From positions 24,336-88,335 of IMG/VR virus record IMGVR_UViG_3300026766_000001: a DNA stretch of 64,000 bases, one strand, 5' to 3'. The translations under genes were made by a program, and so were the position numbers. The notes beneath the pieces are model-generated. The model did no database searches. It was not told where the DNA came from and saw only the letters and a list, made by a program, of their open reading frames with translations. Each line of letters begins with the position of its first letter. Positions within the stretch are counted from its first letter, which is position 1. This stretch comes from a virus (Duplodnaviria; Caudoviricetes). Positions 1 to 64,000 of this stretch are shown piece after piece.

Positions 1-2460
1 TCGCATCGCCTCGGTCGAGCCCGTGAGGGCTTCCTGAAGTTTCATCTCGCCGTCGGCGAAGGCGGTGTCGGACTGCTCGGTCTGCTCCCGCAGGGTTTTG
101 TTGACCTCCTGCTGGCGAGCCCACCGCTGCTCGGTCGCGATCAGTTCTTCGATCTTGCGACGCAGAATCTCGCGCTTCTCCGCGCTCATCTTGTGGAGGG
201 CGGCCACCTCGTTGAGGGCGGTCGCTTCGCGATCGAGCACGTCGGTAGCCGCCTTAACGGTCGCGGATCCATAGATTTCGGCTTCCGCAAGAACCTTGCG
301 CTTCTTGATCGCCAGCTCGTGCTTCTCGATCAGGTCGGCCACTTTCTGGCCGAGCTTGTCGGTCTCGTCGGCCATCGTCTTCGTTTTCTTGGCGCCCTTG
401 TCGAGCTCCACTTGCAGCAGCGCAAGCGCCTCCTTGGAGTGCTGAAATTCGATCGCTTCGGTCCGTCCAGCCTGCGCGAGCCTTTGAGCCGCCTGCTCGG
501 CAGCCCTGAGCTTGACGACGGCTTGGTCCGGCACGAGGTGGGCCACCATGCCCTCCCCGGTCCGCTCCCAAACGGTCTGCGTCGGACCGTGGCCGGCCGC
601 GGCGGCGCGCGCTGCTTCGAGCACGTCGAGCGAGGCAACGTATTGCGCGTTGTGCTGAAGGATCAACGCCTGGCGGTTCGCCAAGGCCGCCTTCTCGTTG
701 TCGATGAACGCCTGCGTCTGGCTTCTCAAGGTGTCAATGTCGCGGTCCCGGGCCTCCCGGGCGAGGTCGACGACGCGCTTCTCGTCCGCGGTCCCACGCG
801 CGGATAGGCGCCGGGCCTCGTACAAGCGCTGGATCGCCGCCAGTTCGTATCCATAGGAGCCGGGGCCGGTCGCAAGGACCGTCTCCCCTACTGCCGCCGC
901 AGCGCGTACGCCGTGAAATCGTTGCTTGCTCTTGGTGACCGTGTCGTACTGCTCGCGCAGTTTGGCCAAGGCGACGGAGTCCTGGTTGGCTCGGGCGACC
1001 TCCTCCAGATACTGCTCGTTCTGTTGGCGCGAGACGTCGATCAGGTGGCGAATCCAGACCACCAGGCCGGCGATGGCTACCGCTGCGATCGCATACGGGT
1101 TGAGCAAGAGCGCCGCGTTCATGCCGAGGATTCGAAGCTCTGCCAGTGCAGCAGCGGCACCCATCTCGATGATCTTGAGGGTCACCGAATACAGCCACGC
1201 GGCAACCTGCAGGGCCATCAGGGCGACGATGGCGTCCCGCAGGAGGCGCCAGTTCTTTACGAACCAGACGAGCAGGTCGATCGCCGCTTTGATCAAGCTC
1301 GCCAGTTTTTGACCGAGGGCGGCGGAGGCGTGCGCCGCCATTTCGTTGAATAGATCGGTGATCTCGCGCAGCCCGTCGGCGATGGCTGCCGTTGCGCCGC
1401 CCTGGCCGACCTGGTCTGCGAAATTGGAGAAGGCGTCCTTGAGGTTGGACAGCGCGCCGGCGGCGCTCTTGGATTGGCGCTCCATGCCGCCGGCGAACTC
1501 AGTCTCGCCGATTTTTGCAAGGTAACCCACGATGGCGTCGGTGTCGCGCTTCATCGTGGTCGTGACACCGTGGAAGGTAAAACTGATCTGTTGCCCCTGA
1601 ATATGGGCTACGATACCGAACCGCTTCAACATTTCGGTTTCGCCGGTCGCCGCACCGATCACGGCCTGCGTGTAATCGGTGATGTCGCGGCCAAACGCGC
1701 TGGCCGTGTCACCCAGGGCGCGCAACAACCTCTCGGTTGGCGCGATGCCCACCGCAGACAGCATGGTAAAGGCGGTCGTAATATTCTGAACCTCGAAGGG
1801 CGTGGTGATCGCGAACCGCTTTATCATGTCGAAGGCGGCCGCGGCGGACTCGGCGGAGCCCGTCACGGTACGTAGTTGGAGACGTAGCTGCTCGAATTCG
1901 GTCGCCTTGACCACAACGGCTGTGATACCGGCCACCACCAGGGTGAAGGCCGCGGCAAGACCGATCAAAAGAGGGCGAATAGACGACGTCGCCTCTGCCG
2001 TCGCGCGCTGGCTCTTGTTGAGGCGATCGTGCTCGGCCGTCGCCTTGGCGATGCTCTCCTTGTAGGCGGCTTGCGCGCGAGCGTTCGCCTCGAGCTGTCG
2101 GTGTTCGGCGCTACCCAGGGCGATGCCAGCGCGAATGGCCTCGTTCTCGGCCGCTACCGCCGTCTGCATTTTTCGGTAGGCTTCCGCGGACATCTGCGCC
2201 GCGAGGGAGAGGCGACGCAACTGATCGGTCTCCCGGTTGCTCGCGGCGATGGCCGCCGCCTGCGCATGGAGCATGCGCTCCATGGTCGCGAGAGCCTGCC
2301 TCTGCGCCGTGCTCAACTCGGACGTCGCGCGGGCGGCTTGGCGCTCCCCGTCAGCGAGATGCCGAGCACCCTCGCCACCCTGACGCATCTCGGTGGCAGC
2401 TCGGCTTACGCCGAGGTTCTCGGTGCCAAGCCTCAGGTTGATGCGGAGGTCACTTGCCAT
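1..2460 (-). CDS. Tail tape measure protein (3' end truncated by window edge)
   Basis: Open frame from ATG 2460 (MASDLRINLRLG...) to position 1, absent from the ORF track because it has no stop. It is Ala-rich and helical with the tape-measure motif KATEFEQLRLQLRTVTGSAESAAAAFDMIKRFAITTPFEV, and follows the tail chaperones. Confidence 0.93.
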   Translation of the reverse strand, partial: MASDLRINLRLGTENLGVSRAATEMRQGGEGARHLADGERQAARATSELSTAQRQALATMERMLHAQAAAIAASNRETDQLRRLSLAAQMSAEAYRKMQTAVAAENEAIRAGIALGSAEHRQLEANARAQAAYKESIAKATAEHDRLNKSQRATAEATSSIRPLLIGLAAAFTLVVAGITAVVVKATEFEQLRLQLRTVTGSAESAAAAFDMIKRFAITTPFEVQNITTAFTMLSAVGIAPTERLLRALGDTASAFGRDITDYTQAVIGAATGETEMLKRFGIVAHIQGQQISFTFHGVTTTMKRDTDAIVGYLAKIGETEFAGGMERQSKSAAGALSNLKDAFSNFADQVGQGGATAAIADGLREITDLFNEMAAHASAALGQKLASLIKAAIDLLVWFVKNWRLLRDAIVALMALQVAAWLYSVTLKIIEMGAAAALAELRILGMNAALLLNPYAIAAVAIAGLVVWIRHLIDVSRQQNEQYLEEVARANQDSVALAKLREQYDTVTKSKQRFHGVRAAAAVGETVLATGPGSYGYELAAIQRLYEARRLSARGTADEKRVVDLAREARDRDIDTLRSQTQAFIDNEKAALANRQALILQHNAQYVASLDVLEAARAAAAGHGPTQTVWERTGEGMVAHLVPDQAVVKLRAAEQAAQRLAQAGRTEAIEFQHSKEALALLQVELDKGAKKTKTMADETDKLGQKVADLIEKHELAIKKRKVLAEAEIYGSATVKAATDVLDREATALNEVAALHKMSAEKREILRRKIEELIATEQRWARQQEVNKTLREQTEQSDTAFADGEMKLQEALTGSTEAMR

Positions 2461-3701: not shown

Positions 3702-4142
3702 TCAGACCAAGATCGTGACGGCGCCGGCCTTCGTGATCGTGACTTGCCCCTGGACGATCCAGGTGACGTCGATGGTTGGGGTGGTGTTCTTTTCTCCGAA
3801 GAGCATGCCCAGGTCGTCGATCTTCACCGCGAAGGTGTACGACGGCTCGTCGTCGGTGACCGCCCCGCTGGTGTGCTTGAAGACGAAGGTGTCGTTCCCG
3901 TCCCCGTTGAAAGCGGTCACCATGGCCGCCTCGAACTCGGTGAAGTTCTTGGATCGAAAGAACGTCACCTGTGCCTCGTGCTTCGAGGTGCCCTTCTCGG
4001 TGGCGTCCCCGAGGTCCTCGTAGGAGGGATCCTCGATCCGCACGCGGGTGAGTTTGAGGGTGAGCTTGCGTACCCATTTCGAGATGTCGGCAGCGTTCAG
4101 GGTGACGACCGGGTTCCGGATCACCCTCTTTTCGTTCGCCAT
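3702..4142 (-). CDS. Tail tube (major tail) protein, 146 aa
   Basis: MANEKRVIRNPVVTLNAADISKWVRKLTL... is a beta-rich siphovirus tail-tube pattern; SD AGGAGA precedes ATG 4142; synteny fits. Confidence 0.75.
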   Translation of the reverse strand: MANEKRVIRNPVVTLNAADISKWVRKLTLKLTRVRIEDPSYEDLGDATEKGTSKHEAQVTFFRSKNFTEFEAAMVTAFNGDGNDTFVFKHTSGAVTDDEPSYTFAVKIDDLGMLFGEKNTTPTIDVTWIVQGQVTITKAGAVTILV

Positions 4143-4183
4143 GAGGCGTTCTCCTTGCGGGCGGAGCCCGGTAGTTGCGGTGG

Positions 4184-4993
4184 TTACAGAATGCTCTTGT
4201 CGATCAAGTCGATGCCGCTCGCCGTTACGGCCGTTCCCGCCCCTGTGACGGTGATCCTTTCTCGCCAGAAGAGCTCGCCCGTCAAAGCCGCCACGTCGCC
4301 GTCCAACTGCTGCCAGGAACCGCCCGGGCCGAGCAGGGTAACGCTCGCGCCGACGATTGGCGTGGCCATGGCGGGGTCGCTGTCGTGGAGCAACTCGAAG
4401 AGCACGGACGTCCCCGAGAACCCAGGGGGATCCGCGAGTTGCGGAGTCCAGGCGAGGAGTTTGCCGGCCACGACCGCCCCCATGTTGAGGATCGGCGACA
4501 GAAACGGCCCACCGGCGGCGTTGTATGCCGTGGTCCCGAGGTTGGTCCACAGGAGCTTCCCGTAGTGGACCATGGAGCCGCCCCCGCCAAGGCCCGCCTC
4601 GAAGCTGCGCAGGGCTTTCTTCTCGTGCGGCAGGGTGAGCTCGTAGATCTTGGTGCGCATCATGACGACTCTGTCGCCAGAGGCCGAGACCGCTACCGGA
4701 GAACCGCCGGCCGCGCGCCGCATGTCCCCGTCGCGAAGCGCAAGGAGCGAGAACTGCGTGTCCAGGTCCTTCAGCTCGGTGAGCAGTTCGGTCTCCGCCG
4801 CGCTTCCAACGCCCGAGATGGTGGCCTCGTTGCCGTGGGACCCCTTGACCGTGTCCGCTCCGAGATCCTCGAAGGTCTCCGAATCCACGCGGTCCCTCTT
4901 CTTGGGGAGTCCGAGATTCCTCGCCGCTATCGAGATCCGGTAGCCGTTCAGGAAGACCGGAATGGATCGCAGGACGAATTTTTCATTCGCCAT
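4184..4993 (-). CDS. Second tail-tube-like protein with C-terminal extension, 269 aa
   Basis: N-terminal ~60 aa align by eye with the 3702-4142 product (MANEK.V.R..V.LN...IS.......D..T.EDLG....KG). Confidence 0.6.
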   Translation of the reverse strand: MANEKFVLRSIPVFLNGYRISIAARNLGLPKKRDRVDSETFEDLGADTVKGSHGNEATISGVGSAAETELLTELKDLDTQFSLLALRDGDMRRAAGGSPVAVSASGDRVVMMRTKIYELTLPHEKKALRSFEAGLGGGGSMVHYGKLLWTNLGTTAYNAAGGPFLSPILNMGAVVAGKLLAWTPQLADPPGFSGTSVLFELLHDSDPAMATPIVGASVTLLGPGGSWQQLDGDVAALTGELFWRERITVTGAGTAVTASGIDLIDKSIL

Positions 4994-5243
4994 CGGTCGC
5001 CTCCTTCGGCGCGATGGGCCGCGCCCTCGGCGCCGGTAGTTCGGCGGGGATTGCGGTCGCCGCCGAGGCAGCTGGCGGATGGGTAGCGGGCGGCGCTTTC
5101 ACGGGCGCGAAATAGCCCTCCCGCTCCAGCCACTCCTCGCGTACCTTGGCGACCCGGACGATTCCGGCGCCCGTTGCCGCCGGGTCGGAGGTGACGCGAG
5201 TGCCGGGTGGGTGCTTGAACCATGGCCTGGTGAGAGTCTTCAT
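4983..5243 (-). CDS. Small Pro/Ala-rich tail-region protein
   Basis: MKTLTRPWFKHPPG...; tightly packed between neighbours. Confidence 0.55.
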   Translation of the reverse strand: MKTLTRPWFKHPPGTRVTSDPAATGAGIVRVAKVREEWLEREGYFAPVKAPPATHPPAASAATAIPAELPAPRARPIAPKEATDGE

Positions 5244-5245
5244 CG

Positions 5246-5692
5246 TTAACCTCCAGAAAACGGGACGGAGAGGAGTTCCCCCATCCAATCGCCCACCTTC
5301 CCCATCCTCTGGACGAAGGCGTCCTCCGGAAACGCGGCCACCAGGTCGATGGCGTGGGTCGCTAGGTGCTGCCTGAGTTGCTTCAAGGCCTCGGAAGCCC
5401 GCCCGCGGCGCGCCCCTGTTTGGTACATCAGCTGGTAGCGGATGTACCCACGGAAGGCCGGCGGCACCGAGGAGTCGTAAACCGCCTCCACTGCGGTAAT
5501 CTCGTGCGCGTAAATCGCCCACATGGTCGGCTTCGCAACGTCGTTTCCCGGCCTGATCGCAGAAATGGCTTCGGCGCCGTCCTCGAACGAGCCGGCCCAC
5601 GAGCTAGTAACCGGTGAAGCCGGTGCCCAACCCTCCAGAGTGCTCGAGACCCAGGAGCGCACGTCGTCCTCCCAACCGTGGCCGTCGCTCAC
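5246..5692 (-). CDS. Tail terminator/completion protein (putative)
   Basis: 148 aa, located just upstream of the tail tube genes, with coupled start/stop. Confidence 0.6.
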   Translation of the reverse strand: MSDGHGWEDDVRSWVSSTLEGWAPASPVTSSWAGSFEDGAEAISAIRPGNDVAKPTMWAIYAHEITAVEAVYDSSVPPAFRGYIRYQLMYQTGARRGRASEALKQLRQHLATHAIDLVAAFPEDAFVQRMGKVGDWMGELLSVPFSGG

Positions 5693-44535: not shown

Positions 44536-45017
44536 TTCGCGCCTCCCGCTGCCTTCAGGAGCCGAACCGCATCGTCCCGCGACAGGCTTGTTTTGGTGGC
44601 CAGGACCTCCGCCCGCGTCGTTTGGCCGGGACCGGACGCCCCCTCGTGGCCCGTGTCGCGCACGAAGAGGTGGCAGCTGTCACTGCTCGAGGTCTGCAGG
44701 CGCGCGGAGCTCGGGCACAGGCAGTCCCCCTGGACGACGATCGCGCCGGCTCGCGCCATCTGGACGCGTGCGAGACCGCCGCCATCGAAGTACTCGCAGT
44801 GGGCGCAGGTCACAACACTCTCCGGGTTGCGGCTGCCCCAGACGCCTTCGGGATCTTCCAGGATAGGGAGGACCTCGCATGGATGCGCCTGACCCCGCTG
44901 GCGAAGCGCGCTACGGCCGACCTCGACGTCACCGCCGGCAGGGATCGCGAGCGAGGCAATGCGTTGCGCGATCAGGCGGCGGACGTTGGGGCCGTGAATG
45001 GGAGTATTCGCTGCCAT
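44532..45017 (-). CDS. Hypothetical Cys-rich protein
   Basis: CAHCEYF...GDCL...SCHLF. Confidence 0.55.
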   Translation of the reverse strand: MAANTPIHGPNVRRLIAQRIASLAIPAGGDVEVGRSALRQRGQAHPCEVLPILEDPEGVWGSRNPESVVTCAHCEYFDGGGLARVQMARAGAIVVQGDCLCPSSARLQTSSSDSCHLFVRDTGHEGASGPGQTTRAEVLATKTSLSRDDAVRLLKAAGGAK

Positions 45018-45030
45018 GAGAAGTACCGGG

Positions 45031-45058
45031 GGGACGCCCTGCGGCTACCGGGCGTCCC
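45031..45058 (-). terminator. Hairpin closing the PAPS-like/RG-peptide operon
   Basis: Perfect 9-bp stem GGGACGCCC/GGGCGTCCC; U-tract weak. Confidence 0.45.
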
Positions 45059-45065
45059 GAATCGC

Positions 45066-45179
45066 TTATCGCCGCCCTCCGCGCGCCCGTCCACCACGCC
45101 GCGCCCGCACCGCTCCCGCTCGCCCGCGGCCACCCCTCGCGCCTCGTCCACGTCCACCTCGACCCGCTCCCGTCGCCAT
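45066..45179 (-). CDS. 37-aa Arg/Gly-rich micropeptide (not in ORF track)
   Basis: SD GGAGGTGA; MATGAGRGGRGRGARGGRGRAGAVRARRGGRARGGRR*. Confidence 0.75.
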   Translation of the reverse strand: MATGAGRGGRGRGARGGRGRAGAVRARRGGRARGGRR

Positions 45180-45211
45180 CGCTAATCACCTCCCCCTCAG
45201 TGAATTACGAG

Positions 45212-45365
45212 CTATCCTCGCCGCGCCCGCGCAGCTCTACGCGTCGCCGCGAGCTCTCGGCGCTGGCGCACCGCGCCTCGCCGGCCTACCGCCCTACCGC
45301 CCTGCCGGCGCCCAGGGCGCGATCCCCGGCCCCGTCCTCCTCTCCCAGCTCCGGTGTTGCTCCAC
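45212..45365 (-). CDS. Second Arg/Gly-rich micropeptide; start codon one base out of frame
   Basis: Frame 45361-45212 reads SNTGAGRGGRGRGSRPGRRQGGRAVGRRGAVRQRRELAATRRAARARRG*; nearest GTG at 45365 is off by one base. Confidence 0.55.
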
Positions 45366-45371
45366 CTCCTC

Positions 45372-45809
45372 TCAAGCCTTCGGCTCGAACGGCTTAAACT
45401 CCACCTCGCTCAACTGTACGCCCAACGAGCGCGCCAGCGCAAGGCCGTTCACGTAACGACCGTTCCCGCCCCCGACGCATTTCTTCCAGCCGAGAGCCTC
45501 CAAGAACTCGTTTTTCTGCCCCTGGCTGAGGAAAACCACGCAAAGCAGGTAGTCCGTGTCACAGGCGGTCTTGAACCGCTCTTTGGCTTTCTCCGAGATC
45601 TCATGCATGCGACGCAGCGTGTCGCTGATCTCGGTCTTGGCCTCCTCCTCGAAGGTTCCGGCAAGCTCGGCGTCGGGCAGGGCGCCGTCGAAGTCGTAAG
45701 AGACGAGCGCTACGCCGTCGGGTTCGTCCGCCGCTCCGTCGAGACCAAAGCCCTCGCCCGGCCCCAGGTTGAACTCGTCGTCCTGCAGGTCAAACTCGTC
45801 GCTCGCCAT
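45372..45809 (-). CDS. Acidic partner protein, 145 aa
   Basis: SD AGGAG; D/E-rich N-half, then ERF...DTDY..CVVF.S..QK.EFL..LGW...RY.NG..LA..LG. Confidence 0.75.
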   Translation of the reverse strand: MASDEFDLQDDEFNLGPGEGFGLDGAADEPDGVALVSYDFDGALPDAELAGTFEEEAKTEISDTLRRMHEISEKAKERFKTACDTDYLLCVVFLSQGQKNEFLEALGWKKCVGGGNGRYVNGLALARSLGVQLSEVEFKPFEPKA

Positions 45810-46511
45810 CGGCGATCTCCTTGCGGAAAAGCTCGGCGTCAATGAGCGGAAACCAGTCCAAAATCTTTTCGTAATCAGCGGGGAAATGGCGCTTGATGGC
45901 CACCAGGTGGCGGTAGTCCAGACCGTCGAAAGACCTCCCCCAGATCTCGTAGTCTCGGGGGAGCTGCAAGCCGGCCTTGCGGATGACCTCGTGCACCTCC
46001 GCGAGCTTCCAGTCCCAGACGGGGTAAAAGGTCTTTGTCTTGGCCCGGATCGCGCCGTGCCAGCGGAAGGTGAGCTGCCGCATGGTCGAATCCGCGGCCC
46101 TCGTCCCGACCGCGATCCACGACCCCTCCATGCCGAGGCCAGGGCCAGCTGTTTGAGCTCCGAAAGCGTCGTGTCCACGGGATGATCGAAGGCCTCGAGG
46201 ATGGGGACGCGGTGCGGGGGCTGGAAGGCCTGCCACCCGAGCATCTGGTACATCCGGACGTGAGGAATGCGCACGATTCGGACGCCGAAAAAGCGCTCGA
46301 TCTGATCCAGCCACTCCTCGACGAACGAGATATCCGGGATGTCGTAGTGGTAAATGGGGACAATCCGATCGAAGCCCGCCTCCCGAAGGCGCAACCAACT
46401 GGCCAATGAATCCTTCCCTCCGCTGAACGAAACCGCGATCTCGCCCGTCTCGGCCCGGATGCGCCGCACCACCTCGCCCGAGGGCACCTGCTCCACCTTT
46501 GCTCCCGCCAT
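45790..46511 (-). CDS. PP-loop / PAPS-reductase-like adenine nucleotide alpha-hydrolase (one-base frameshift near 46140)
   Basis: IAVSFSGGKDS; WIAVGTRAADS..R; FYPVWDW...V; YEIWGRSFDG. Halves are in different frames. Confidence 0.82.
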
Positions 46512-46518
46512 GCGCGAC

Positions 46519-46547
46519 ACTTTACCGCATTCCGAACTGCGACGCAA
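46519..46547 (-). promoter_or_regulatory. Leaderless promoter of the PAPS-like operon
   Basis: TTGCGT-17-TAAAGT, ATG 7 nt later, no SD. Confidence 0.6.
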
Positions 46548-46604
46548 TCCCCCGCCCCGCCGACAAAAGCCCAATACAAGACAAACATTTCCGCTATTTA
46601 CCCC

Positions 46605-46633
46605 TTGACTATCCCGTGACCGTCCCGTATACT
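46605..46633 (+). promoter_or_regulatory. Sigma70 promoter of the rightward accessory operon
   Basis: TTGACT-17-TATACT. Confidence 0.75.
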
Positions 46634-46704
46634 TCCATCGTACCGAGAACACAATGCCTACGAAAGAAGACGCGACTACCGATACACGACAAGAAAGTCC
46701 CGCA

Positions 46705-47133
46705 ATGAAAGCTACGTCTACCGCCCGCAAGCGCGCCCATACCGCCCACCAGCCGGTGGGTTGCTGGTGCCGTCCTGCGAAGCGCCTGGCCATCTACCTA
46801 CGCGACGGCCTGGCCTGCTGCTGGTGCGGGGCGACCGTCGAGGATGGCGCCACGTTCTCCCTCGACCACGTTCGCCCCGTCTCCAAGGGGGGCGACAACG
46901 ACCCCTCGAACCTGCTGACAGCCTGCAAGCGCTGCAACGACAGCCGAGGAAGCCGTTCCCTCGCCGCCTTCGCGCGCGCCGTCGCCGCGTACCTCGACCA
47001 TGGCGCTACCGCCCGTGAAATCCTCGCCCATGTCCACGCCTGCCTGCGCCGCCCCCTGCCCGCCGCTGAAGCAAAAGCCCTAATCGCGCGCCGCGGCTCC
47101 GTCGCGGCTGCTCTACAATCCGGAGGCCGCTGA
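46705..47133 (+). CDS. HNH endonuclease (McrA-like zinc-binding type; start may be 46654)
   Basis: IYLRDG..CCWCG...LDHVRPVSKGGDN..SNLLTACKRCN..RG. Confidence 0.88.
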   Translation: MKATSTARKRAHTAHQPVGCWCRPAKRLAIYLRDGLACCWCGATVEDGATFSLDHVRPVSKGGDNDPSNLLTACKRCNDSRGSRSLAAFARAVAAYLDHGATAREILAHVHACLRRPLPAAEAKALIARRGSVAAALQSGGR

Positions 47134-63151: not shown

Positions 63152-64000
63152 ATGTCCAAGCTCCAGAGCAGCAAGGCCGCCGCGACTGCGGACTTCCAGT
63201 ACGACTTTATCTTCCTACGTTCGGCGCCAGCGGATGGCGTCACGGCGCGCAAGCATATTGAGGGAGGTTTCGCCTGGCCCACGGGTCCGGACGCCGTTGG
63301 TCGGGTGATCGAGGCTCCCGATTGGGACCCGAGTCCCTCGCGAGATTGCGGCGGCGGACTGCACGGACTGCCGAGCGGCATCGGCGATTGGGGTCTTGTC
63401 CTCAGTCCTTCAGACATGAGCGTGCTGTGGTACGTCTGCGGAGCCAGTATGGAGGAAGCCGTCTTCGGCTCTGGCAAGGTTCGCGTCCGACGTTGCCGAA
63501 TTCTTTACGTCGGTCACTTCGGCCGGGCGATGGATCTTATCTCGCCAGCAATGACGGCGGCTGTCGCGGATCTCGCGGCAAGGCGCGTGACTACGGCTGG
63601 CGAAAGCGCGGCCTCCAACAGCGGCTACAGCGGCGCGGCCTCCAACAGCGGCTACAGCGGCGCGGCCTCCAACAGCGGCTACAGAGGCGCGGCCTCCAAC
63701 AGCGGCGACAGCGGCGCGGCCTCCAACAGCGGCGACAGAGGCGCGGCCTCCAACAGCGGCGACAGAGGCGCGGCCTCCAACAGCGGCGACAGCGGCGCGG
63801 CCTCCAACAGCGGCGACAGCGGCGCGGCCTCCAACAGCGGCTACAGCGGCGCGGCCTCCAACAGCGGCTACAGAGGCGCGGCCTCCAACAGCGGCTACAG
63901 AGGCGCGGCCTCCAACAGCGGCGACAGCGGCGCGGCCTCCAACAGCGGCGACAGCGGCGCGGCCTCCAACAGCGGCGACAGCGGCGCGGCCTCCAACAGC
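63152..64000 (+). CDS. Phage repeat protein (DUF7666-like N-terminus plus 9-aa repeats), truncated by window edge
   Basis: SD GAGGAG; EAPDWDP....CGGGLHG; open to the window end, so absent from the ORF track. Confidence 0.8.
   Translation, partial: MSKLQSSKAAATADFQYDFIFLRSAPADGVTARKHIEGGFAWPTGPDAVGRVIEAPDWDPSPSRDCGGGLHGLPSGIGDWGLVLSPSDMSVLWYVCGASMEEAVFGSGKVRVRRCRILYVGHFGRAMDLISPAMTAAVADLAARRVTTAGESAASNSGYSGAASNSGYSGAASNSGYRGAASNSGDSGAASNSGDRGAASNSGDRGAASNSGDSGAASNSGDSGAASNSGYSGAASNSGYRGAASNSGYRGAASNSGDSGAASNSGDSGAASNSGDSGAASNS
63608..64000 (+). repeat. Coding tandem repeat, 27 nt, 14 full units plus one partial
   Basis: GCGGCCTCCAACAGCGGC(T/G)ACAG(C/A)GGC = AASNSG(Y/D)(S/R)G. Confidence 0.97.

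Follow-up and report, generated by a model that had tools for sequence, protein, structure and literature searches.

The window analysed in this work, a 64-kb stretch of DNA of an uncultured phage (bases 24336-88335 of the 88,335-bp IMG/VR virus record IMGVR_UViG_3300026766_000001), carries on its minus strand the genes of a PP-loop ATP pyrophosphatase, a small partner protein and two Arg/Gly-rich micro-proteins, termed RG1 and RG2. It was found that these three parts (enzyme, partner and micro-proteins) co-occur across very different phages and are tied to packaging or head genes. Our preferred reading, a tentative one, is that the window contains a degenerate copy of a widespread and undescribed packaging-block module, in which the enzyme would activate the tail of a micro-protein for transfer to an acceptor. 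No described function for a PP-loop/partner/micro-protein module was found in the literature. An original prediction, made from the letters of this DNA alone, had put forward an uncharacterised system that includes the peptides, and this proposal stands on the co-occurrence of the parts and on the peptide-level conservation of the micro-proteins.

The packaging-block module in other phages

An alignment of PP-loop homologs retrieved 112 relatives from IMG/VR; 80 loci were fetched, and 76 non-redundant loci were counted. Single-protein scans with the partner and with the C-terminal half of the PP-loop protein returned no relatives from IMG/VR or GTDB genomes; it was the alignment-based scan that found them. 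When a profile derived from the window partner was applied, the partner was located directly downstream of the PP-loop gene, or fused to it, in every locus. Single-frame PP-loop::partner fusions were observed in the L073 group, in L018/L078 and in the database protein P0013. Such repeated fusions demonstrate, at the level of gene structure, a physical coupling of the enzyme and its partner.

Most loci contained one or two open reading frames (ORFs) of 24-55 amino acids (aa) between the partner and the next large gene, usually with a Shine-Dalgarno sequence (SD) and ATG of their own, and the encoded micro-proteins were strongly basic and nearly free of acidic residues. Many of them began with MRG or MRN followed by an Arg-rich amphipathic stretch, others consisted of Gly-Lys/Arg repeats, and both types typically ended in R-[ST]-S-G-[ST] right before the stop codon. 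The micro-proteins matched no Pfam or PHROG family. The outcome named in the original prediction as contrary to it, homologs lacking the micro-ORFs, did not occur: the partner was present in all loci, and one or two basic micro-ORFs were carried by ~80% of the 76. A tailed micro-ORF was found in 51 of the 76 loci; in 43 of these it directly followed the partner, and in 8 it lay at another place within 5 kb. Approximately ten further loci had a tail-less basic micro-ORF after the partner. The ending [ST]SG[ST] was recorded for 39 of 235 ORFs in the 450 nt after the partner vs 9 of 9874 elsewhere in these loci (Fisher p 1e-56). Among 31 distinct tails, the Ser codons switched between AGY and TCN and Gly used all four codons; therefore it is the peptide and not the DNA that is conserved. 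Judged by codon usage, the micro-ORFs are under peptide-level selection, which is strongest on the exposed C-terminal R-[ST]-S-G-[ST] tail. Tandem micro-ORF pairs were present in 9 loci, and the two copies of the window would therefore reflect a family habit.

One such pair was observed in Pasteurella phage Pm86 (L089), where micro-ORFs at 5098-5235 and 5248-5346, both ending in RSSGS, occupy the 315-nt 'intergenic' space that separates ORF52 from ORF53; the GenBank record annotates neither. Pairs of the Pm86 type recurred in L021, L026, L054, L056, L061 and L067. No near copy of an enterobacterial-type locus was detected in E. coli genomes. A conserved class of phage genes is missed systematically by gene callers.

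The module was always located in a packaging or head gene block in the surveyed loci. The gene following the micro-ORFs was terS of PHROG 1889, 57 or 309, or terL; therefore the position before the packaging genes is constant across changes of the terminase family. In L023, head-morphogenesis and protease genes surround the micro-ORF and the enzyme pair. In Gordonia phage Cafasso (MZ322021), the map of the genome closes with the trio gp166-168 and opens with terS. In Cutibacterium phage CA1NRNZ (L097), a 35-aa annotated hypothetical protein of the micro-protein type (1595-1702, minus strand) heads the terS-terL operon. These two phages, together with Pasteurella Pm86 (ORF51-52, MH238467) and Bifidobacterium BigBern1, are isolated phages that carry the same module, annotated piecemeal. 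Their PP-loop genes were 36-40% identical to the ortholog in L002, a 13.8-kb Logan contig that was found via the partner protein and is the nearest relative of the window; the partner lies directly downstream, and a basic micro-ORF precedes terS. In contrast to the window, these copies are intact, and their micro-proteins, none of which has an assigned function, mostly belong to the amphipathic MRG/MRN type and end in Ser/Gly-rich stretches.

The partner family was investigated by a profile search of 1.84 billion representative proteins, which returned 1813 clusters at E ≤1e-3, mostly of stand-alone proteins of 120-180 aa. None of 35 partner sequences matched Pfam, and two of the 35 matched an unnamed PHROG. 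Foldseek against the PDB gave no match to the partner fold at E <1, a PDB profile search gave none, and a wide VIA-align comparison yielded just generic long-helix matches (Z ≤4.4). In the ESM Atlas, only viral hypothetical clusters and one weak ParB-like row (TM 0.33) were obtained. In the IMG/VR phage L025, three partner-domain paralogs (2199-2702, 4141-4662 and 5209-5688) were noticed within 3.5 kb downstream of the PP-loop gene.

A connection of the partner with ParB-like proteins was recorded in Lactobacillus phages. In phage LR1, a gene labelled 'nuclease' showed a weak ParB_N match at the N-terminus and the partner domain at residues 181-248, and a two-sequence search of the window partner domain against the C-terminus of this LR1 protein gave 18.5 bits (E 2e-7). 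The 'PAPS reductase + ParB-like' pairs of LR1 and JNU_P7 resemble the module in having a PF01507 enzyme next to a partner where the packaging genes begin; in these phages, basic proteins of 123-141 aa that end in Ser/Gly or Gly-Gly adjoin the PP-loop gene, whereas those of the module are 24-55 aa long. The pairs differ further in that the window partner has no ParB_N, to which none of the 35 partner sequences matched, and instead bears an N-terminal extension that varies and is acidic in this case. Further pairs of a PAPS reductase and a ParB-like protein are IbrA/IbrB and YbdN/YbdM of E. coli. Because the partner domain is fused to ParB_N in LR1, and because basic proteins with Ser/Gly or Gly-Gly ends occur in LR1 and JNU_P7, the module is a ParB-less relative of the 'PAPS reductase + ParB' (IbrA/IbrB-like) pairs.

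Few unexplained phage genes are as common as terminase-adjacent 'PAPS reductase' genes, to which a role in sulfur metabolism is routinely and wrongly assigned. One large branch of them was found to have two unrecognised companions, the partner domain (at least 1800 clusters, no Pfam entry) and the mostly unannotated tailed micro-proteins, and the partner domain ties this branch to the ParB-linked (IbrA/IbrB-like) branch. A vague annotation is thereby replaced by a concrete three-component system open to biochemical assay, for which culturable models are available among Gordonia, Pasteurella, Cutibacterium and Lactobacillus phages.

The copy in the window

The PP-loop gene of the window (46511-45790, minus strand), which is PAPS-reductase-like, lies in two frames. 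The N-terminal half starts at the ATG at 46511 and bears the SGGKDS motif (46424-46407), the C-terminal half ends with the stop at 45790, and both halves matched PHROG 424/2302 'PAPS reductase' (E 5e-10 and 4e-12), so that a PP-loop protein with SGGKDS is present as had been read from the letters. The halves were 61-69% identical to the intact L002 ortholog, which passes Pfam PF01507 (25.8 bits vs a cut-off of 22.5), and correspond to its residues 9-110 and 111-224, the two frames sharing 4 nt. The one-base frameshift predicted near 46140 was confirmed at 46139-46129, where a net loss of 1 nt relative to the homologs falls between '...LKQLALA' and 'EGSWIAVG...' in an alignment with eleven of them. 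A record-wide search found a single PP-loop copy, in two pieces. The broken sequence was identical in four other assemblies (Logan, JGI, ENA), the samples of which may be related, and the break is therefore not the error of one assembler. A programmed -1 frameshift was considered and rejected: the junction contains no slippery heptamer (X_XXY_YYZ), and the gene is continuous in the nearest relative and in other homologs. Since such a heptamer was not present, the break is read as a true frameshift mutation.

The frame of the N-terminal half continues uninterrupted into the partner gene, and an ORF of 473 aa results (46793-45372, minus strand). This ORF includes 109 out-of-frame codons with no stop, for which the probability by chance was ~0.07 according to a rough composition estimate. 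If translated, it would be a chimera of the N-terminal half, a nonsense stretch and the partner, unlike the natural in-frame fusions of other phages.

The partner gene (45809-45372, minus strand) overlaps the PP-loop gene by 20 nt and encodes 145 aa. Its N-terminal half contains 21 D/E vs 3 K/R (pI 4.3), in agreement with the acidic, overlapping protein of 145 aa described originally. In the AF2 model (pLDDT 74.5), the N-terminal half is disordered; a helix of 30 residues and a small alpha/beta domain follow, the latter being conserved across the family. The acidic half is not a family trait, and many family partners have Lys-rich, basic N-termini. The charge of the partner N-terminus correlated weakly with that of the peptide (rho -0.39, p 0.006, uncorrected for relatedness). 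Hence, the idea that an acidic protein chaperones the peptides did not gain support.

RG2 (45179-45066, minus strand) encodes a micro-protein of 37 aa with 13 Arg, 14 Gly and zero acidic residues (pI 12). It is preceded by an SD (45196-45186) and starts with ATG, GGAGGTGA being located 7 nt upstream of the latter. Among the 271 ORFs of 30-60 aa in the window, RG2 was unique in being acid-free, at least 30% basic and equipped with a strong SD and ATG. A positional ortholog was identified in L002, the partner of which is merely 53% identical to that of the window: an Arg-rich ORF of 35 aa (4890-4997) with AAGGAGG and ATG, directly before the terS homolog.

RG1 (45355-45212, minus strand) shares with RG2 the 11-residue motif TGAGRGGRGRG (45355-45323 in RG1, 45173-45141 in RG2), as the original prediction had it, and 9 of the 11 codons differ, all changes being synonymous. 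In the six frames of the window, this motif was the sole repeated peptide 10-mer with substantially differing DNA copies; every other one stemmed from a tandem DNA repeat of 27 nt near 63.6-64.0 kb. RG1 has an SD-like GAGAGGAGGTGG at 45373-45362, and no ATG, GTG or TTG precedes the motif, so the reported lack of an in-frame start was verified. Alignment of RG1 with RG2 revealed that six bases, ATG-GCG, were lost in RG1 after the intact SD. RG2 is taken as a gene and RG1 as its start-less paralog. RG1 was probably under peptide selection until recently; less likely, it is reached via a +1 shift from the partner stop.

The R-[ST]-S-G-[ST] tail was not observed here, as RG2 ends in Arg-Arg, RG1 in Arg-Gly and the L002 ortholog in Arg. 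In the PP-loop tree, the window paired with L002 (support 98), and these two grouped, with a weak support of 78, with L016 and L041, which have tail-less polybasic peptides, and with L008, the Gly-Lys-repeat peptide of which keeps the end RSSGT. The RG peptides thus appear to be a tail-less offshoot of the repeat-type micro-proteins.

The borders of the unit were examined as well. The leaderless promoter that had been assigned to it is a weak promoter-like element, TTGCGT-17-TAAAGT (46547-46519, minus strand), which ends 7 nt before the ATG; it agrees with the consensus at ~7 of 12 positions (manual count) and fell under the threshold of the consensus scan. The arrangement TAAAGT-7nt-ATG recurs as TAAGAT-7nt-ATG in L002. 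A GC-rich hairpin with a 9-bp stem does follow RG2 (45058-45031, minus strand), so that part of the earlier description stands; as a closing element it found no support, being no canonical terminator, having no T-run, folding no better than shuffles (z -0.66) and remaining uncalled by a terminator scan. The next gene begins 14 nt after the hairpin and runs toward terS and terL. Because promoter and terminator are unsupported and the next gene is so near, the unit is probably not self-contained, contrary to what had been proposed.

The broken enzyme, the start-less RG1 and the lost tails of the window copy point to a decaying or re-purposed module. In the window phage, RG2 would most probably serve, should it act at all, as a free polycation that binds nucleic acids, perhaps with the acidic N-terminal half of the partner as its buffer, because the enzyme is frameshifted, the start of RG1 is lost and the tails are replaced by Arg-rich ends. 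Such a copy would be a natural 'enzyme-dead, tail-less' variant, useful for comparison.

Proposed mechanism and competing explanations

The motif S-x-G-K-D-[SA] was kept in 97-98% of 74 aligned PP-loop sequences, and a number of Arg, Asp and Gly positions were likewise retained. In this alignment, Cys was nowhere conserved: no column exceeded 39% Cys, and none was conserved at the C-terminus. The AF2 model of the enzyme (pLDDT 84) matched the PP-loop adenylating enzymes TilS, TtuA, MnmA, CysH, NAD synthetase, YcfA and Cap9. Membership in the PF01507 family holds at the fold level, by the domain match and the SGGKDS motif. Two of the matched structures hold a protein partner, namely TtuA-TtuB and Cap9-CdnD with an NDG modification.

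In the TtuA-TtuB system of tRNA 2-thiouridine synthesis, the C-terminal Gly-Gly tail of TtuB inserts into the active site of TtuA. Cysteines for Fe-S and Zn occur in TtuA; TtuB, a thiocarboxylate carrier with a ubiquitin fold, is produced by an E1-like enzyme. The module resembles this system in so far as a PP-loop enzyme is in complex with a small sulfur-carrier protein there (PDB 5GHA, entry title); it differs in that those Cys, the ubiquitin fold and the E1 features are not present in the module. Flexible protein termini made of small residues are the targets of Cap9 and QatC (PMC13279940). In Cap9-CdnD (type IV CBASS deazaguanylation) and QatC-QatB, an ATP-dependent PP-loop enzyme is complexed with a protein, and a flexible tail of small residues enters the active site (PMC13279940; bioRxiv 10.1101/2025.04.06.647259). 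However, Cap9 and QatC belong to the QueC subfamily with a Zn site, whereas the enzyme of the module has a PAPS-reductase fold with no conserved Cys. In addition, an N-terminal Gly amine attacks an adenylated nucleobase carboxylate in those systems, while the conserved end of the module is a C-terminus, and they serve host defence, unlike the packaging-operon genes of phages.

We propose, with the reservation already expressed for the module as a whole, that the PP-loop enzyme, held by the partner, would adenylate the free C-terminal carboxylate of the micro-protein using ATP. This step is suggested because adenylation of carboxylates is standard PP-loop chemistry and because protein termini do enter the active site in solved PP-loop enzymes. 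Once activated, the polycationic peptide would then be joined to an acceptor connected with the packaged DNA or the head. The more specific version, in which the ATP-activated polycationic micro-protein is ligated either to the phage DNA or to a head/packaging protein as encapsidation proceeds, seems to us rather unlikely. If true, it would be a conjugation chemistry not known in phage biology and shared by thousands of phage lineages, and it would also be related to the enigmatic ParB/PAPS-reductase (IbrAB-like) pairs. A complex of the PP-loop enzyme, the partner, ATP and the canonical 32-aa micro-protein of L026 was predicted with alignments, and ipSAE values of 0.37, 0.25 and 0.01 were obtained, with a median (0.25) under the mark of 0.32 that speaks neither for binding nor against it.

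Several observations weigh against tail activation by the enzyme. No micro-ORF was seen in ~15-20% of the loci, and the clade of the window (window, L002, L016 and L041) has no tail though the L002 enzyme is intact. The window phage persists with a broken enzyme, its sequence being identical in several assemblies; therefore the phage can do without the enzyme, at least for a short time. Furthermore, the PP-loop and partner genes of CA1NRNZ are on the strand opposite to the micro-ORF and divergent from it, the micro-gene staying with terS, and in L020, L023 and L058 the micro-ORF is ~2.7 kb upstream. Placement kilobases away, or with terS on the opposite strand, is what would be expected of a packaging cofactor that only happens to be a neighbour.

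Such a cofactor is the core of the alternative that survives best, and which we regard as possible, though not probable. It holds that the micro-proteins work on their own in packaging or in the head (as polycationic, protamine-like counter-ions or as cofactors of the terminase or portal, the tail being a docking signal), and that the PP-loop enzyme and its partner separately modify DNA, nucleotides or tRNA in the manner of IbrA/IbrB-type pairs; the parts would be neighbours merely as all are needed at packaging time. Besides the displaced micro-ORFs of CA1NRNZ, L020, L058 and L023, in the last of which a head-morphogenesis gene is adjacent, this explanation is favoured by the acid-free Arg/Lys/Gly composition, which suits nucleic-acid binding, by the tail-less micro-proteins beside intact enzymes (L002) and by the fusion of the partner domain to ParB_N, a DNA-binding fold. 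We know of no tailed phage that uses a protamine-like core protein. Baculovirus P6.9, a small, Arg-rich and Ser-containing viral protein, has been proposed to neutralise packaged DNA (PMC12159748). It resembles the micro-proteins in being small, Arg-rich and encoded by a dsDNA virus, the likeness of RG2 being one of composition, and it has no sequence relation to them. On the other hand, the strongest conservation is at the extreme C-terminus before the stop, across peptide bodies as unlike as an amphipathic helix and Gly-Lys repeats, which indicates that a free end is used, and the micro-ORF accompanies the enzyme pair next to several unrelated terminase families.

Two further alternatives concern the RG frames themselves. 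It is improbable that a +1 shift at the partner stop codon (GCT-TGA-G, with T skipped) leads into RG1 and so adds it to the C-terminus of the partner, which would give the protein an acidic head and a basic tail. The RG1 frame does stand at exactly +1 to that of the partner, no stop interrupts it between the partner 3' end and 45212, and its motif was kept through synonymous changes; but there is no prfB-type slippery P-site codon, no partner::peptide fusion occurs in relatives, the family micro-ORFs have their own SD and ATG, and RG1 reads as the loss of ATG-GCG after an intact SD. Hardly to be expected, in turn, are chance frames or regulatory upstream ORFs with no peptide function in DNA of 66% GC. 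Arg-rich spurious ORFs are common in GC-rich DNA, RG1 is start-less and the RG peptides are of low complexity. However, the motif diverged by synonymous changes only, the positional ortholog in L002 has an SD and ATG, RG2 is unique among the comparable ORFs of the window, and conservation at the peptide level is family-wide.

It is most improbable that the enzyme is an ordinary PAPS/APS reductase of auxiliary sulfur metabolism, a DndC-type enzyme or a lasso-peptide cyclase, since the PF01507 match and the database labels 'PAPS reductase' are opposed by the lack of any conserved Cys, and so of a redox-active C-terminal Cys or Fe-S ligands, by the lack of an Asn-synthetase domain and of Asp/Glu for a macrolactam in the peptides, and by the constant company of packaging genes and the partner. 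PAPS/APS reduction, Fe-S thiolation and DndC-type action are excluded because no Cys is conserved, which makes the ordinary reductase activity set against the original prediction an unlikely one.

Particular families were also compared. CysH-type PAPS/APS reductase function was rejected on the lack of a redox-active C-terminal Cys (ECGLH-type motif) in the 74-sequence alignment. DndC was rejected on the lack of conserved Fe-S Cys; the neighbours were the partner, micro-ORFs and terminase genes, dnd genes not having been explicitly searched for. The QueC family was discarded as well: no PF06508 match or conserved Cys was found, the micro-proteins start with MR.. or MA.. instead of Met-Gly, and their conserved end is the C-terminal one. 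The lasso-peptide or other RiPP-like route suggested for the peptides was not upheld, as Pfam gave PF01507 only and a lasso precursor has Asp/Glu at core position 7-9, whereas RG2 is free of acidic residues, which are also uncommon among the micro-proteins of the family.

Flanking genes and repeats of the source record

The source record has direct terminal repeats and is rated complete, and the GC content of the DNA is ~65-66%. The gene order was read from 46800 down to 44800 with the ORF listing. On the minus strand, the PP-loop gene in two frames is followed by the partner, RG1, RG2, the hairpin, a 161-aa gene, a DUF551-like gene, terS, a 643-aa gene and terL. The terminase small subunit gene terS (43978-43244, minus strand; PHROG 4044, E 1.6e-6) is downstream of the module in the same orientation, and terL was located at 41066-38961 (minus strand; PHROG 2, E 1.9e-13). 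Two genes are inserted between the micro-ORFs and terS: the 161-aa gene (45017-44532, minus strand), which belongs to no family, and a 187-aa gene with weak DUF551/PHROG 924 similarity (44535-43972, minus strand). Both are absent at the corresponding spot in L002, where the terS homolog is directly 3' of the micro-ORF. The 643-aa gene (43146-41215, minus strand) has weak LVIVD and PKD similarity, and its site between terS and terL is an unusual one for such a gene.

Upstream of the module and divergent from it, an HNH endonuclease gene was found (46654-47133, plus strand; Pfam HNH_5, E 2e-12). It is served by a sigma-70-like promoter, TTGACT-17-TATACT (46605-46633, plus strand), which agrees with the consensus at 10 of 12 positions and was the sole sigma-70 call of the consensus scan in the module region. 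A divergent HNH gene is likewise present upstream of the PP-loop gene in L002. A search against Rfam revealed no relevant RNA in 44800-46800.

A tandem array of 27-nt repeats occupies the record end (window positions 63620-64000, plus strand) and adjoins the terminal repeat. This array yielded many repeated peptide 10-mers in several frames (e.g. RRGLQQR.QR), and its copies differ by at most 2 nt, that is, the repeat is at the DNA level.

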